Origin: Vicinamibacteria bacterium
GTDB lineage: Bacteria > Acidobacteriota > Vicinamibacteria > Marinacidobacterales > Marinacidobacteraceae
Direction: 5' to 3'
NCBI GenBank assembly: GCA_965199715.1
Contig: OZ241322.1
Coordinates: forward strand, 1,600,001 to 1,664,000
DNA length: 64,000 nucleotides
Position numbers and translations under genes: made by a program. The number at the start of each line of letters is the position of its first letter. The first letter of the stretch is position 1. Of the stretch, positions 323-40,620 are shown one piece after another. A model generated the notes under the pieces. The model was not told where the DNA came from. It was given only the letters and a program-made list of their open reading frames with translations, and did no database searches.

Positions 323-3300
323 TCAGCGTCTTTCGGACGGATCGCCGGTGGGCTCGCGGCCGCCCTCCGAGTCGAGGAAACCGTGGCGCGCTTCGGGCCC
401 GATCCGCCGGGTGTTGTACTCGGCCCGCCATGTCCGCAGCGCCTCAGAATCGGGGTAGGCGCCGTCGGGATAGGGGTAGGCGGGCATCCCGTGGAAGGGC
501 AGCGGGCCGACCGTGTGCGGCCGCGCCGAGTTCAGGTCCATGTCCTTGCCGAATCCGTCGGCGAGGACGAAGAAGGACCTTTCGAGTCCGTCCGCCAGAG
601 CCGGAGCCTCGGCGAAGCGGAGCCGGATCTCGTCGCCGTGGCGGGCGATCACGTAGCGGTCGTCCACTTTGGCGAGGAGCGGGCGCACGTCCCCGAAGCG
701 GGTGTAGGCGCCGGCGTGCGCGCCCCAGGAGTCCGACGACCGAAGGTTCCGATAGCGGTACTCGCCCGGCGGAAGCCCCCCCGGCCGGTGCGGCTCGGGA
801 TAGCCGGCGAAGCCGAGATCCGCGGTCGCCGCGTCGATTCGCGTGACCGTGACCGCGGCGAGGGACGCTCGCTCGGCGAGCTCGGCGCGGTCCCAGTAGA
901 TCCGCATGTTCGTGCGGATGCGCAGCGGCTCGCCGGACGCGAGCGGCACGCCGTCGAGCGGGACGACCATCGTCTTCGGCAAGCCGGCGGGGAAACCCAT
1001 GGGATCGAGCGCGGTCCGGAAGGCTCCGTCGTCGCCGAGAACTTCCAGAACCGGCGGAAGCCCCGCCGCGCCCGCCTGCGCGGCGGACAGGTTCGAGCTG
1101 GAGTCGGCGTAGTCCACCCAGCCGTACAGCAGGAGCACGTGCTCCGCCCCTTCGCGGACGTCGTCGAAGCGCAGCGTGAGCGTGTGCTCCTCGGCGTAGC
1201 CCTTGAACGGCAGCAGCGCGAAGTCGTCCACATAGACGCGGTCCACCGCGAGCAGCGCGTCCGTCCGGTCGCGGGCCGCTCCGTCGGTTCCGGCCCACTC
1301 GGCGCTTGAAGGCGGGCGGCGGTTCTGCACCGCGACGAGACCCGGCGCGGGGAACGGCGGGGCCGGCAGGAGCCGCTCGTCGGGGAACACGTCCACGTCC
1401 GGCGGGTGGTCGGCGACCCACAGCTCGGCCCGGTCGTAGAAGATGACCTCCTCAAGCTGGTTCAGCCAGCGCATCTCGTAGTGGCCGTCCCGTGCGACCA
1501 GTGGGAACGACTCCATCTTGACGACTTCGGCGGTGTCCGGGGTGTTGAACATGCCGGGCGCGAGCAGGTTGCCGAGCGCGCTGCCGCCGAGGAAATCGGT
1601 CACGAAGCGGATCCGCTCACCGTCCCAGGCGTAGAGCACCGGGCAGGAGGTTCCCTTGCGGTTCAGCTCCTCCACCGACGCGAGCGCCGCCGCCGGAAGA
1701 TCCAGCTCGATCTGCTTCACGCCGCCCGGCCAGAGGAGGCGGACGTAGTCGGCGGCCGCCGCGGCGCCGAGGCCGAAGTGCGCGGGGAGGTCGTCCTGCG
1801 ACAGGTAGCCCGACGTGGTGCGGACCTCGCGGCGCTGGCTCACCCCCGCGACCCGGACCTCGATCTTGGTTCCGACGCCGTCGAGGTTGCTGCGAAGCCC
1901 AGTGGGTCGCACCGCCATCCACCGCCCCGGGTCCGGAGTCTCGTTGCGGAACGCGAGGAGCCGGCCGCGGTTCGTCCCGGCGACCGCGTCGAGATCGCCG
2001 TCGCCGTCCACGTCGGCGAGCGCGAGGGCGCGGGCGCCTTCGTCGGGTTCGAGCGCGGCGTCGAGCGACGCGGCCCGCAACAAGCCGCCCGGCCCATTGC
2101 GATGCAGCGCGAGGACTGCGCCGGGTTCGTTCGTGACCGTCAGCAGATCGAGGTCCATGTCGTGGTCCGCGTCGAGCAGGGACACGCCGTAGCGGGAACC
2201 GGGCGCCCCGGCGCCGAGGAAACCGGGCGAGACGGCGTCCGGCGCGAATCCGCCGGCGCCGCCCCGAAGCAGCATGTTGAGGGCGCCCCCGTCCGCGGTG
2301 AGGACGAGGTCGAACATCCCGTCGCGGTCGAAGTCGCCGCCCGAGACGCCGCGCATCCTTCCCGCGGTCTCGACCCCCCACGCCTCGGAGACCTCGGTGA
2401 AGGTGCCCACCCGGTCGTTCGAGAACACCTGCACCGGGGCGCCGTCGTTCACGACCGCGAAGTCCACGTCCCGGTCGTCGTCCCAGTCGGAGAAGATCGC
2501 CGCGAGGCTGCGCCGGGAACCGCCGGTCGTGCGGGTCTCCACCGCCACGTCGGTGAACGTGCCGTCGCGGTTGTTGCGAAAGAGGCGGTTTGGCGCGCCG
2601 GCGCCGTCGTCGCCGACCGAGAGCGCGTAGTTCGCGACGTACACGTCGAGGTCGCCGTCGTGGTCGAAGTCGGCGAGGGTCGCGCCCACGGAGACCTCGT
2701 CTCCGGCCGCCGCCTCCGAGAGCTCGAAGCGGTCGCCCCGATGCAGGAACAGCGGGTTCGGGCCGGCGGCGGCGACGTAGATGTCCGGGCGGCCGTCGAG
2801 GTCCACGTCGCCGATGGTCACGCTGATCGCGTTCGTGGTTTCGACCCCGGAGTCCTCCCACCGTTCGAAGCGGCCTCCGACGTTGCGGAAGAGCAGCACC
2901 GCGCCGTCCCGCACGAACGCCAGTTCGGGCCGGTCGTCGCCGTCGAGGTCGCGGAAGGCGACCCCGGAGCCGAGCCGGGCGAGGAGCGGATCGGGAGCGA
3001 TCGGCGGGAGCAGGAGCCCCCAGTCCTCGGTCGCTTCGACGAAGGCCGCCGGTCCGCTCGCCGGCTCCTGCGTCTGCCGGTAGAGCGAGGCCGGAGCCGG
3101 CTCGATCGCTTCGGCGTAGGGGCCGAGCTCGGTGTACTGGAGCCCGGCGGAGACCCCGGCCCCGGCGAACGCCTCCTTGAGTTCCTGGAACTTCTGGAGC
3201 TGCGCCCGCCCCTCCTCCCGGCGCCCGGCCCGGACCAGCACGTTGCCGAGGCTGAAGTGGGCCGACTCGTGCTCCGGAGTCAGCAGGATGGCGCGGCGGA

Positions 3301-3767: not shown

Positions 3768-5648
3768 ATGATCCAGCTCTCCCGCGCTTCCAAGGCCTTC
3801 GGCGAGCAGGTCCTGCTTCGGGACTCGTCGTTCCGGGTGCAGGAAGGCGACCGCGTGGGACTCGTCGGGCCGAACGGTTCGGGGAAGACGACGCTGCTGC
3901 GGATCCTCGCCGGGCAGGTGGAGCTGGACGCCGGCGAGGTCGTGCGGGCGCGCGACCGGCGGTGCGCGTACCTGCCGCAGGACGGCCTCCGCCACGAGGG
4001 CCGGAGCCTCTTCGAGGAGGCCCGCAGCGCGTTCCAGGACCTGCTGGACCTGCGCGAGGAGCAAGAGCGCATCTCGGGGAAGCTCGCGTCCCGACCAGAC
4101 CTGCTGCAGCGGTTCGGGCAGATCGAGGACGAGTGGCAGCGCCGGGGCGGGTATTCGCTCGAGGCGCGGATCGCCGAGGTGCTCGCCGGCCTCGGCTTCG
4201 AGGAGTCCGACCACGGCCGCCCCACCGAGACGTTCAGTCAGGGATGGCAGATGCGGATCGCGCTGGCGAAGCTGCTGGTGCAGGGGAACGACCTGATCCT
4301 CCTCGACGAGCCGACGAACTACCTCGACATCGAGGCGCGGGCCTGGCTCCTCGGGTTCCTGAACCGCCATCGGGGCGGCCTGGTGCTCGTGGCCCACGAC
4401 CGGTACTTCCTCGACTCGGTGGTGACCCGCATCACCGAGATCGGGATGGAGGGGCTGCGGGACTACCCGGGCAGCTTCAGCCGCTACGAGGTCAAGCGGG
4501 CCGCCGAGATCGCCGACCTCCGCAAGCGGGCGCAGGAGCAGCAGGAGGAGATCGAGCGCTGCCAGCGATTCATCAGCAAGTTTCGCTACCAGGCGAGCCG
4601 GGCGCGGCAGGTGCAGAGCCGCGTCAAGGCGCTCGCCCGGATGGAGCGGATCGTCGCCCCGCCCGAGCCGCGCCGCTTCCGCCTGCGGCTGCCGCCCCCG
4701 CCGCGTTCCGGTCCGGTCCCGGTCCGGCTGGAATCCATCGCGAAGGCGTACGGCGACAACGTGGTGTTCCGAAACGCGGACGTGACGGTCGAGCGGGGGC
4801 AGCGGCTCGCGCTGATCGGCCCCAACGGGGCGGGCAAGTCCACGCTGATGCGCCTGCTGGCCGGGGCGGAGGCGCCCGACCGGGGCTCCCGGGAGCTCGG
4901 CCACAACACGAAGATCGCTTACTACGGGCCGGACCGGCACGACCTCAACCCCGAGCGGACGGTCCGCCAGACGATGTCCGACGCGGCCTCGCTGGAGATG
5001 CTCCCGCAGATCCGCGACATCCTCGGGGCGTTCCTGTTCTCGGGCGAGACCGTCGAAAAGCGCACCGCCGTGCTCTCCGGCGGGGAACGCAGCCGGCTCG
5101 CGCTGGCGCGGCTGCTGCTGCGTCCGGCGAACCTGCTGCTTCTGGACGAGCCCACGAACCACCTCGACCTCGCCTCTAAGGCGGCGCTCCTGGACGCGCT
5201 CAAGGCGTACCGGGGGACGATCGTCTTCGTGGCGCACGACCGGTACTTCATGGACGCGCTGGCGACCCGGGTGGCCGCGATCGGGGGCGGCGAGGCCGCG
5301 CCCTACTGGGGGAACTACAGCGACTGGCTCGCCCGCCAAGCCGGCGAGAAGGCCCCGGCGCCGGCCCTCCGGCGGAAGGAGCCGGCCAAGAAGGCCGCCC
5401 CGAAGGAGGCGATGTCCAAGAACCGCCTCCGGCGGCTGCGGCGCGAGTGGAAGGAGGCGTTCGACCGGGTGGCCGCCGCCGAGAGCAGCATCGAGGAGAT
5501 GGAGACCCGCATGGCGACGCCCGGGTTCTTCGAGGACCGCGAGACGTCCCGGCGGGTCGCCCGGGAGTACGAGGTGCTGAAGTCGGCGCTGCCCGCGCTG
5601 TTCAAGACCCTCGAGGGCCTCGACGCCCAGTTGGGCGAGAGCCGGTAG
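3768..5648 (+). CDS. ABC-F family ATP-binding protein (ribosome-associated, YheS/Uup-like)
   Basis: Two ABC domains (GPNGSGKT/FSQGW/LLDEPTNYLD and GPNGAGKS/LSGGE/LLDEPTNHLD), inter-domain linker, C-terminal coiled coil, no TM segments. Confidence 0.92.
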   Translation: MIQLSRASKAFGEQVLLRDSSFRVQEGDRVGLVGPNGSGKTTLLRILAGQVELDAGEVVRARDRRCAYLPQDGLRHEGRSLFEEARSAFQDLLDLREEQERISGKLASRPDLLQRFGQIEDEWQRRGGYSLEARIAEVLAGLGFEESDHGRPTETFSQGWQMRIALAKLLVQGNDLILLDEPTNYLDIEARAWLLGFLNRHRGGLVLVAHDRYFLDSVVTRITEIGMEGLRDYPGSFSRYEVKRAAEIADLRKRAQEQQEEIERCQRFISKFRYQASRARQVQSRVKALARMERIVAPPEPRRFRLRLPPPPRSGPVPVRLESIAKAYGDNVVFRNADVTVERGQRLALIGPNGAGKSTLMRLLAGAEAPDRGSRELGHNTKIAYYGPDRHDLNPERTVRQTMSDAASLEMLPQIRDILGAFLFSGETVEKRTAVLSGGERSRLALARLLLRPANLLLLDEPTNHLDLASKAALLDALKAYRGTIVFVAHDRYFMDALATRVAAIGGGEAAPYWGNYSDWLARQAGEKAPAPALRRKEPAKKAAPKEAMSKNRLRRLRREWKEAFDRVAAAESSIEEMETRMATPGFFEDRETSRRVAREYEVLKSALPALFKTLEGLDAQLGESR

Positions 5649-6188
5649 CTACTCCAGTTCCACGCCGAGGCCGCTCGCGATGCGGTTCACGTAGCCGTAG
5701 TAGGCGGTGACGGCGCAGGCGTCGTGGACGTCCCGGTCCGTGAGTCCGGCGTCCCGCAGCGGCGCGAGGTCGCCTTCGGTCATCGCGCCGGGGGCGCGCG
5801 CCAGCTTGATCGCGTAGTCGGCGAGGGCGCGGAACCGGGGCGGCAGCGGCGCGCCGTCCGGATCCCGGACCAGCGCCTCGACCAGGTCCCGGTCGCGGGT
5901 GAGCCGGAGGAGACCCCTCCGGTGGTGCTCGATTCAGTAATGGCACTCGTTCACGGTCGAGACCGCGACCGCGATGATCTCGCGCTCGGCGAGGCTGAGC
6001 CCCGACGGGCCGCGCATCAGGTGCTCGTAGAGCGACAGGTGGTGCTCGAGCGCCCCCGGATTCAGGCTGCTGGCCCGCAGGATGTTGTCCATCTTGCCGT
6101 CCGGGCGGCGATGTTCGCGATAGATCCGGCCGAGCGTTCCCTCCTTCGCCTCGGGGTCGTCGGGGGCGACCATCCGGATCCACGCCAT
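5649..6188 (-). CDS. AhpD/carboxymuconolactone-decarboxylase-like peroxidase-related protein, probable selenoprotein (UGA at codon 85)
   Basis: Frame reads ...EREIIAVAVSTVNECHY-[TGA 5934-5936]-IEHHRRGL...YYGYVNRIASGLGVELE-TAG. The TGA occupies the second Cys of the family CxYC motif and family-like sequence continues after it. Confidence 0.88.
5904..5922 (-). promoter_or_regulatory. Putative bacterial SECIS element
   Basis: Minus strand CCGGAGG-GGTCT-CCTCCGG: perfect 7-bp stem starting 11 nt after the UGA; loop resembles the E. coli fdhF SECIS loop. Confidence 0.8.
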
Positions 6189-6225
6189 GGGGAACCGGAG
6201 CATAGTCGGCCGTAGGATTCCCGCC

Positions 6226-6663
6226 ATGATTCGAGCGGCCTGCGACGGGTCCTGCCTCGGCAACCCGGGGCCCGGCGGCTGGGCCGCGGTGCTGCGCCTG
6301 CCGACCGGCGAGGAGCGGGTCCTCACCGGCGGCGAGGCCGAGACCACGAACAACCGCATGGAGCTCGTGGCCGCGATCCACGCGCTGGACGCGCTGCCCG
6401 AGAACGAGGCCGCGGAGATCCTCTGCGACAGCACCTACGTCATCCAGGGAGTCGAGCAGTGGGTGCCCCGCTGGATCCGGCGGGGATGGATGACCTCGAA
6501 GAAGCAGCCGGTGAAAAACCGGGATCTGTGGATGCGGCTCGCCGACGCCCGGGCCGCCCGCCCGATGGCGCGATTCCGCTGGGTGCGCGGCCACGCGGGA
6601 AACCCGGACAACGAGCGGGCGGACGCGCTGGCGCTTCAGGCGGCGAGGAGCCAGGCGCGATGA
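6226..6663 (+). CDS. rnhA: Ribonuclease HI
   Basis: [43 protein letters not shown] motifs. Confidence 0.95.
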
Positions 6664-39399: not shown

Positions 39400-40620
39400 A
39401 TGCGGTTCCCGCGACTCCGGGTCCTTCTCCCGGCCCTCCTCGCCTTGGCGCCTCTCGTGGCGTGCGGCCCCTCGAGCAGCGACGCCGTGCGCATCGGCGC
39501 CGCCCTCCCCCTGAGCGGCCGGCACGCCAACGCCGGCAGTTTCCTGCGCAACGGATACCAGCTCGCGGTGGACGAGGCGAACGAGGCCGGCGGCGTGGTC
39601 ATCGACGGCCAACGTCGCCTCGTGGAGCTGATGATCTACGACGACAAGAGCGACCCCTCGATCTCGCCCAGCCTGCTCGAGCGGCTCATCGCGGTCGATG
39701 GCGTGGCCGCGCTGCTGTCCAGCTACAGCACCCCGCTGGTCCAGTCGCAGGTCATCGTGCCGATGCGCCGGGGCGTTCCGTTCGTGAACGCCGGGGGCGC
39801 GTCCCAGACGATCTTCCGGGAAGGGAACGAATGGGTCTTCGGGGTGCTCAGCCCGGTCATGTCCCTTGCCGAAACCACGCTCGACTGGCTGAGGTGGGAG
39901 CAGGACAACAAGCGTCTCGCGCAGCCGCTGCGGATCGCGCTGATCTGGCAGAACACCGACCACGGACGCGAGTACCGGGACGGGGTCCACCGGGTCATGG
40001 CGGCGCACCCCGGCCGTTTCGAGCTCGTGCTGGACGAGTCCTTCGAGCACCTCTCGAGCGACCACACGTCCCTCATCGTGAAGGTGCGCTCGGTGCAGGC
40101 GGACGTCTTCCTCTCGGATGCCCACGAGCCGGACTTCCTGCTGCAGCACCGGGCCTACATGGAGCAGGGCCTCGGCCACATCGCGGTGAGCTACGGGGCG
40201 CGCGGCCCCGAACGCTCGGTGCGGGAGGGACTCGGGGCGGCCGTCAGCAACCTCGTTTCCGCGCAGTGGTGGACGCGGCAGCTCCCCTATGCGCGTTCGC
40301 AGGAATTCGTCCGGACGTACGAGGGCCGGTTCGGCGGCCCCCTCACCGAGTACTACCCGGCAGTGGCCTACGAGGCGGCGCGGGTGCTCGTCCAGGCGAT
40401 CGACGAGGCCGGCTCGGTGGAGCCGACCGCCATCCGCGACGTCCTGAAGGGCATCGACCTCGACGACTCGTTGCTTCCGGGAGGCCGCCTCCACTTCCCG
40501 GCGGACTCCCGTTATCAGATCCGCAACCTATGCGTGATCGTGCAGAACCTCCCGGACGGCGGCGTGCAGATCGTGTATCCGCCCGACGCCGCGGAAGGGC
40601 CTGCCAACCTCTTCAACTGA
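39400..40620 (+). CDS. Branched-chain amino acid-type ABC substrate-binding lipoprotein
   Basis: Lipobox LVAC; IGAALPLSG, YDDKSDP. Confidence 0.88.
   Translation: MRFPRLRVLLPALLALAPLVACGPSSSDAVRIGAALPLSGRHANAGSFLRNGYQLAVDEANEAGGVVIDGQRRLVELMIYDDKSDPSISPSLLERLIAVDGVAALLSSYSTPLVQSQVIVPMRRGVPFVNAGGASQTIFREGNEWVFGVLSPVMSLAETTLDWLRWEQDNKRLAQPLRIALIWQNTDHGREYRDGVHRVMAAHPGRFELVLDESFEHLSSDHTSLIVKVRSVQADVFLSDAHEPDFLLQHRAYMEQGLGHIAVSYGARGPERSVREGLGAAVSNLVSAQWWTRQLPYARSQEFVRTYEGRFGGPLTEYYPAVAYEAARVLVQAIDEAGSVEPTAIRDVLKGIDLDDSLLPGGRLHFPADSRYQIRNLCVIVQNLPDGGVQIVYPPDAAEGPANLFN

Follow-up and report, generated by a model that had tools for sequence, protein, structure and literature searches.

Is the TGA at positions 5934-5936 of this DNA the end of a short gene, the trace of a recent mutation, or a codon for selenocysteine (Sec)? 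The question is raised by a locus on the minus strand of a 64,000-nucleotide stretch of the genome of a Vicinamibacteria bacterium (GenBank assembly GCA_965199715.1, contig OZ241322.1, positions 1,600,001 to 1,664,000), which as a whole is referred to as the window. An earlier note, made from the sequence alone, had proposed that a Sec-dependent AhpD-like redox enzyme is hidden here behind an in-frame UGA. Our analysis makes it very probable that the gene encodes a 179-residue AhpD-like selenoprotein (TIGR01926, CMD fold), in which UGA-85 is read as Sec by means of an in-frame hairpin and U85 is part of a CxxC redox center. The selenoprotein assignment in the proposal is thus supported; its novelty is not, as the family has been in print since 2005, and the designation "peroxidase" is one that we infer from homologs.

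A gene that continues across an in-frame UGA

Translation of the minus strand with TGA as Sec (U) gives a gene with the following features:

6188..5649, minus strand: complete coding sequence of the predicted AhpD-like selenoprotein, 179 codons including UGA-85, plus a TAG stop
6188..6186, minus strand: start codon ATG
5981..5922, minus strand: predicted active-site stretch with E70 (5981..5979), C82 (5945..5943), Y84, U85, and H89 (5924..5922)
5936..5934, minus strand: predicted Sec codon UGA, codon 85, in the motif C82-H83-Y84-U85 (translation with TGA = U)
5922..5904, minus strand: hairpin CCGGAGG-GGUCU-CCUCCGG, with the 5′ arm at 5922..5916, the loop at 5915..5911, and the 3′ arm at 5910..5904
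5651..5649, minus strand: stop codon TAG

The TGA is preceded by 84 sense codons that end in N-E-C-H-Y, the motif across it reads C-H-Y-U-I-E-H-H, and the frame then stays open for another 94 sense codons, from I-E-H-H to G-L-G-V-E-L-E, up to a TAG that lies flush with the stop codon of a neighboring ABC-F gene. This continuation had been described in the earlier note, which left the minus strand unstated, as had the perfect hairpin that begins 11 nt after the UGA, and both descriptions are correct. The list of open reading frames (ORFs) obtained with translation table 11 contains only an N-terminal piece (5934..6434, minus strand) and a C-terminal piece of 44 codons. The expectation that standard annotation would split such a gene is borne out by the protein database, in which the entries P0013 and P0015 end at ...C-H-Y or ...C-R-Y, and the entry P0016 begins right after the UGA. 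These split entries are the product that is expected from a gene caller halting at UGA.

The read-through product matches the NCBIfam profile TIGR01926 ("peroxidase-related enzyme") with 145.4 bits at a cut-off of 81.8, and the match is continuous across the UGA, with residues 11-176 corresponding to profile positions 8-173 of 178. It also matches the Pfam domain CMD (PF02627), and the solved structures closest to it are those of AhpD-like proteins (3c1l with 104 bits, 2pfx with 98 bits, and 6k40 with 87 bits). The alignments with the structural homologs, at 76-104 bits, span most of the length, namely residues 7-175 in the case of 6k40 and 30-175 in the case of 3c1l. A pairing of Cys with UGA at codon 85, which the proposal had called for, is found at several levels: the TGA column coincides with the second Cys of the C-x-Y-C motif in 3c1l, 2pfx, and 6k40, full-length database homologs of 35-47% identity carry C-x-[YF]-C-x-x-x-H, and two Cys-form loci from other phyla (L073 and L074) read C-H-Y-C-I-E-H-H. 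The Sec form is also carried by one metagenome-assembled genome with a Planctomycetaceae title. Relatives of the organism additionally encode five TGA-less paralogs (L065-L069) with Ser at the Sec position (C-[D/E]-Y-S-x-x-H-H), which have no hairpin and retain just the first Cys of the redox pair, and another TGA-less paralog has Cys at the Sec position and is without the first Cys.

Conservation of the UGA and of the downstream hairpin

The search for relatives covered 61 genomes, the window's own (G000; 2.66 Mb, two contigs, 93% complete) and 60 relatives, and 56 of them gave a match. In the 50 best rows of this search, which come from several families of one order and extend to about 40% identity, there is exactly one in-frame TGA each, one row carrying an extra TAG, and the first row without a TGA is at 39% identity. 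The position was checked in 44 loci (30 and 14) of these 50 TGA rows, and the TGA column is identical and lies in C-H-Y-U in all 44. No Cys form was found among the homologs above about 40% identity in the 60 relatives, and some of these genomes contain two to four Sec paralogs. Three relatives of the same family gave no match with the window query, namely G001 (94% complete), G006 (89%), and G009 (86%). The relative tallies for the AhpD-like gene, as well as for the Prx-like and OsmC-like genes described below, take in one unpublished genome (G036), on which no claim depends.

The hairpin sits within the coding sequence at codons 89-95, after an 11-nt spacer (5933..5923), and has a perfect stem of 7 bp. 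Counted from the U of the UGA, it starts at nucleotide 15, and its loop supplies G23 and U24. In the selenocysteine insertion sequence (SECIS) of E. coli, the upper stem-loop lies 11 nt from the UGA, the loop nucleotides G23 and U24 are conserved, and a bulged U17 is needed (PMC8659212). As far as this source describes the fdhF-type element, the 11-nt spacing, the G23/U24 of the apical loop, and the location inside the coding sequence are thus shared.

A common register for all 44 sequences had to be rejected. The hairpin of the more distant sequences is shifted 2 nt upstream, and the 30 sequences in the register of the window (group A) and the 13 more distant sequences (group B) were therefore counted separately, with L063 belonging to neither group. 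In group A, 91.8% of 196 cells are paired, compared with 32-69% when the 3′ partner is slid, and the loop GGUCU is invariant (30/30). The earlier note ascribes a similar GGUCU loop to fdhF of E. coli; a literature search for the fdhF loop sequence gave no occurrence, and the likeness is tentative. The closing pair of group A is G-C in 15 sequences, A-U in 6, G-U in 4, C-G in 1, and unpaired in 2, and the exchange of G-C for A-U is brought about by two synonymous changes (AGG/AGA and CUC/CUU); in the relative L055, two pairs are altered on both sides. Group B has a 6-bp hairpin with other loops such as CGGGN, and 98.7% of its 78 cells are paired, compared with 24-54% when slid.

The codons that form the hairpin vary less than others. 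Within 25 related genes, which are not independent of each other, the mean codon entropy of four- and sixfold degenerate codons amounts to 0.50 for codons +4 to +10 and to 1.09 elsewhere (permutation p ~1e-4), and the Gly codon of the loop is GGT in 25/25 genes, while GGT accounts for 28/275 Gly codons elsewhere in these genes. We also applied a fixed definition of the hairpin—at least 6 bp, at most one G-U pair, a start 8-21 nt after the codon, and a G as the first or second base of the loop—and such a hairpin is present in 41/46 Sec-form loci and in 0/8 non-Sec (Ser or Cys) forms; as L071 is the same place as L023, the former count corresponds to 40/45 distinct Sec-form places. The joint conservation of UGA and hairpin in relatives, on which the earlier note had made its proposal depend, is therefore observed, with the TGA in 44/44 and the hairpin in 41/46 Sec forms. 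The comparison between genomes, with the retention of the hairpin in Sec forms, the synonymous compensatory changes, and the suppressed synonymous variation, shows that the structure is more than chance.

Selenocysteine machinery and the genetic code

The sel machinery, whose absence would have spoken against the proposal, is present in the window's genome. The genes selA (474 bits), selB (327 bits, covering 1-580 of 581), and selD (248 bits) were all detected above the cut-offs, and a tRNA-Sec was recognized with 69.9 bits by the Rfam model and called as SeC with the anticodon UCA by ARAGORN. A gene for tRNA-Ala(GGC) is located 8 nt away from that for tRNA-Sec, in the same orientation (L013:1498-1677, minus strand). 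SelD makes up the C-terminal part of a protein of 748 residues, which has an N-terminal pyridine-nucleotide-disulphide oxidoreductase domain (L009:1396-3642, minus strand) and a C-G-G-C motif just before the SelD part. This oxidoreductase-SelD fusion matches the Ndh-SelD fusion that is mentioned in the paper on the Global Ocean Sampling (GOS) survey (PMC2398784). The formate dehydrogenase alpha model TIGR01553 gave no match in this genome, which is 93% complete, and the Sec machinery seems to serve thiol-redox selenoproteins only in this organism.

Among 1728 crude long ORFs with a high G+C content at third codon positions (GC3), the stop codon is TGA in 1302, TAG in 366, and TAA in 60 cases, and several orthologs of the AhpD-like gene themselves terminate in TGA. 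As TGA is the commonest ordinary stop, UGA would be recoded locally and not reassigned, and the earlier suggestion that the organism recodes UGA agrees with the presence of a Sec pathway next to this stop codon usage.

Codes in which UGA stands for Trp or Gly exist in other bacteria. Sequence analysis does not reveal the inserted residue directly, and UGA-85 might instead be read through as a different amino acid (Trp, Cys, or Gly), be it in a reassigned code or with the help of a near-cognate tRNA or a suppressor tRNA. The stop codon usage of the genome and the orthologs ending in TGA contradict such a reassignment, the aligned residue in the homologs is Cys and never Trp or Gly, and a complete Sec pathway coincides with a conserved hairpin at SelB-type spacing. 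We therefore consider the insertion of a residue other than Sec to be very unlikely.

Coding constraint on both sides of the UGA

The two parts of the gene evolve alike. Across 24 comparisons within the closest family, the differences at codon positions 1/2/3 number 387/340/890 upstream of the TGA and 397/276/928 downstream of it, with amino acid identities of 74.8% and 74.2%, respectively. The downstream part of the 25 genes has 0 in-frame stops, and its two alternative frames have 56 and 21.

These data bear on the possibility that termination at UGA-85 dominates, that the 84-residue fragment works alone or with a separately started C-terminal piece, and that Sec insertion is marginal. In E. 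coli, recoding competes with release factor 2 (RF2) and reaches only 30-40% (PMC4513850), and each half is represented in the database by gene calls of its own (P0013, P0015, and P0016). However, the fragment would miss half of the fold covered by TIGR01926 and the solved homologs, along with U85 and H89; in the window gene, none of the first 20 codons downstream of the UGA is an in-frame start; and the constraint on the C-terminal half equals that on the N-terminal half. We thus regard a predominance of termination as highly improbable.

A pseudogene or a sequencing or assembly error—a recent nonsense TGA in a Cys-type AhpD-like gene, with the downstream frame as a decaying relic—would explain why the table 11 ORF stops at ...NECHY, and long open frames can arise by chance at 71.5% G+C, but the same TGA is found in 44/44 checked homologs from independent assemblies and in all 50 best rows, the downstream half has a codon-position bias, an amino acid identity like that of the upstream half, and 0 in-frame stops in 25 genes, and in our reading this conservation and constraint refute the idea, to which we give practically no weight.

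Protein family, active site, and proposed mechanism

Decoding of UGA-85 as Sec, which we favor, would place the gene in a family that is already known. An "AhpD-like protein" with 27 sequences, assigned to COG2128 and characterized by a CXXU motif and predicted SECIS elements, was described in the Sargasso Sea study of 2005 (Zhang, Fomenko & Gladyshev; PMC1088965), the GOS survey lists 299 "AhpD-like 1" selenoproteins and 902 Cys homologs (PMC2398784), the table of a 2026 review has an entry "AhpD-like protein, TIGR01926, CxxU" that is not in the "experimentally verified" block (PMC13188914), and BSepDB takes the AhpD-like family as its browsing example (PMC13326102). The gene in the window shares with this family the profile-based assignment, the Sec at the second position of the motif, a downstream SECIS-like hairpin with a G in the apical loop, and widespread Cys homologs, and there is no defining difference. 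Family and motif have been known since 2005 through computational prediction, the gene represents no new mechanism or family, and supplementary tables could already list this lineage.

As judged from its sequence, the gene has every testable membership feature of the AhpD-like TIGR01926 CxxU family, and it is not a canonical AhpD. The canonical AhpD equivalog model TIGR00777 gives 17.2 bits, far below its cut-off of 191.95, and TIGR00778, which describes the CMD/AhpD core domain, is matched with 40.3 bits at a cut-off of 27.8. The gene is also not a member of NF041238 (AhpD_rel_CFYUT), known as "hypothetical protein 1" from the Sargasso Sea study and likewise a CxxU selenoprotein within this superfamily: the match is weak, with 45.9 bits versus a cut-off of 175, and concerns the C-terminal part of a 357-position model.

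The closest characterized homolog is DR_1765 of Deinococcus radiodurans (6k40), which belongs to the same fold family, as do 3c1l (Mlr4105), 2pfx, 2prr, and 2oyo. The C-x-Y-C motif of these proteins aligns with C-H-Y-U; they differ in having Cys in place of Sec and need no recoding signal. Loss of DR_1765 renders D. radiodurans more sensitive to H2O2, and the Cys residues of its CxxC motif matter (PMC8945050). With AhpD of M. tuberculosis (TIGR00777), the lipoamide-dependent reductant of AhpC, the product shares the CMD/AhpD core and the relay spacing, with the Sec at the position of Cys133; unlike in this AhpD, the third motif residue is Tyr and not His, there is no ahpC beside the gene, and the TIGR00777 score is below the cut-off.

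The spacing of an AhpD-type relay is found in the product, with a Glu at −12 from the first Cys, a C-x-[H/Y]-C motif, and a His at +4 from the second Cys, and both this Glu and this His are present in 44/44 Sec forms. At the corresponding positions, PA0269 has Glu36/Cys48/Tyr50/Cys51/His55, and AhpD of M. tuberculosis has Glu118/Cys130/His132/Cys133/His137 (PMC3141380). As far as these homologs have been described, they suggest a peroxidase role (PMC8945050; PMC3141380), and by analogy the product is most likely a selenol/thiol peroxide or disulfide reductase with U85 as the attacking and C82 as the resolving residue.

The following mechanism can be proposed from the parts that are present and conserved and, for the chemistry, by analogy to the Cys homologs. 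When the ribosome arrives at UGA-85, the SelB of the organism would bind to the in-frame hairpin and would deliver Sec-tRNA(Sec, UCA), which would be made by SelA and the SelD fusion protein. U85 would then replace the second, exposed Cys of the CxxC redox center. Its selenolate would most likely attack a peroxide or an oxidized partner peroxiredoxin, C82 would resolve the intermediate to an intramolecular selenenylsulfide with the aid of the E70/Y84/H89 relay, and a thiol donor would recycle the C82-U85 pair. U85 is taken as the attacker and C82 as the resolver because the Sec is at the position of Cys133 in M. tuberculosis AhpD, the exposed residue that contacts AhpC; this second Cys has been reported to form the cross-link with AhpC (PMC6626918).

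Points that weigh against this interpretation

Several observations weigh against a SelB-dependent selenoprotein with the chemistry outlined above. Unlike the E. coli SECIS, the hairpin has no bulged U17, as position 17 is a paired G in the perfect 7-bp stem. When 61 nt of the lone sequence are folded, z is −0.13, and 79/200 shuffles fold equally well; at 71.5% G+C, the fold of the single sequence is unremarkable, and the case for the hairpin therefore rests on the comparison of genomes. In this comparison, the covariation is modest, with changes on both sides in 2/7 pairs of group A and in 0 pairs of group B, and shuffle controls overstate its significance because the sequences are related. 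Conserved codons (H-R-R-G-L-L-R) coincide with the hairpin, whose conservation is therefore owed in part to the protein. In L063, the predicted hairpin is located about 20 nt downstream of the UGA, and a hairpin of at least 6 bp as defined above is not found in five Sec-form loci (L039, L046-L048, and L054). The absence of a match in G001, a 94%-complete genome of the same genus, implies that the gene may be dispensable or not universal, and ahpC is not among the immediate neighbors examined (the ABC-F gene, the RNase H gene, and a PhzF-like gene). The identity of the attacking residue is uncertain, and in AhpD of B. thailandensis the first Cys mattered more, which is the opposite preference (PMC6626918). 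Finally, Sec insertion and activity are so far predictions for the AhpD-like CxxU family, in keeping with its place in the table of the 2026 review (PMC13188914).

Gene neighborhood

The predicted selenoprotein gene stands alone between two genes on the other strand, with no redox partner beside it:

3792..5648, plus strand: gene of an ABC-F type ATPase, convergent neighbor outside the element (start 3792 picked by eye)
6226..6663, plus strand: RNase H gene, divergent neighbor outside the element (PF00075, 139.8 bits; start 6226 picked by eye)

The product of the ABC-F gene contains the domains ABC_tran (twice), ABC_tran_Xtn, and ABC_tran_CTD. Its stop codon TAG (5646-5648) abuts the stop codon of the selenoprotein gene (5649-5651), stop to stop with 0 bases between them (TAG, then CTA), and the start of the RNase H gene is 37 nt away from the selenoprotein ATG. 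Promoter and terminator scans of positions 5400-6500 gave 0 sites of either kind. As the two convergent genes meet without an intergenic base and without a terminator-like site, their transcripts must either overlap or terminate within the opposite gene.

Further candidate selenoproteins in the genome

The genome was crudely scanned for TGA codons with a hairpin 8-15 nt downstream and open frames on both sides, using a GC3 filter. This reduced 889 raw places to 7, which comprise the AhpD-like gene, four further likely selenoprotein genes, and two places that were rejected. One of the latter (C2:81131) is, by eye, the ordinary stop at the end of a ClpX-like gene, and the other (window 40618-40620, plus strand) is, also by eye, the ordinary stop of a solute-binding protein gene that is followed in frame by a membrane permease gene. 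The four further candidates have a conserved in-frame TGA and belong to families that are known to include selenoproteins, and all of them lie outside the window.

The first is a candidate thioredoxin-fold protein disulfide oxidoreductase (PDO) on contig C1 (L075:1-645, plus strand) with the TGA in U-P-Y-C. It matches TIGR02187 over residues 9-209 with 161.9 bits, which is below the cut-off of 185, its hairpin has the 5-nt loop GGUCU, and the TGA is kept in 14/14 matches from relatives. The second is a candidate AhpC/TSA peroxiredoxin-like (Prx-like) selenoprotein (L076:1-570, plus strand; PF00578 with 109.5 bits) with the motif W-U-P-F-C, for which the TGA is present in 23/24 matches from relatives. 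The third is a candidate OsmC-like selenoprotein (L077:~616-1083, plus strand; PF02566 with 41.9 bits) with the motif G-G-U-M, and the corresponding rows in relatives contain at least one TGA each. The Prx-like and OsmC-like genes are adjacent on the same strand and are possibly an operon of two selenoprotein genes. The OsmC-like gene is preceded by a low-complexity, Arg/Pro-rich frame (L077:1-615, plus strand) with about 60% identity in relatives of the family and 1-3 extra TGAs; this similarity probably stems from a gene in a different frame or on the opposite strand that is conserved at the nucleotide level. The fourth is a candidate CYCXC / PCYCGC selenoprotein (L078:1-471, minus strand; NF041379 with 101.8 bits, cut-off 90) with the motif T-U-P-I-C. 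Its TGA is found in 15/20 matches from relatives, all from the same family as the window's genome, and in none of the other 5, which are from a different family.

Implications

Our data describe a well-supported case of UGA recoding that is truncated or split by ordinary gene callers, and this is useful for correcting the annotation of the genome and its relatives. They also mark the organism as a Sec user with at least five likely selenoprotein genes. With 299 sequences in the GOS survey (PMC2398784), AhpD-like CxxU proteins belong to the most abundant selenoproteins that have been predicted in bacteria, and the compact and conserved unit of gene and SECIS would be a reasonable subject for a first biochemical test of this family.

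Beyond the single gene, we tentatively suggest, as a possibility that we would not yet call probable, that the AhpD-like enzyme is essentially selenium-only in this Vicinamibacteria-type order and perhaps one node of a small selenium-dependent peroxide-defense set. Such a set may comprise the AhpD-like, Prx-like, OsmC-like, PDO/thioredoxin-like, and CYCXC proteins and may be supplied by the oxidoreductase-SelD fusion, in a genome in which no Sec-containing formate dehydrogenase was found. If this is true, a widespread acidobacterial lineage would need selenium for the defense against oxidative stress, and not for anaerobic energy metabolism.

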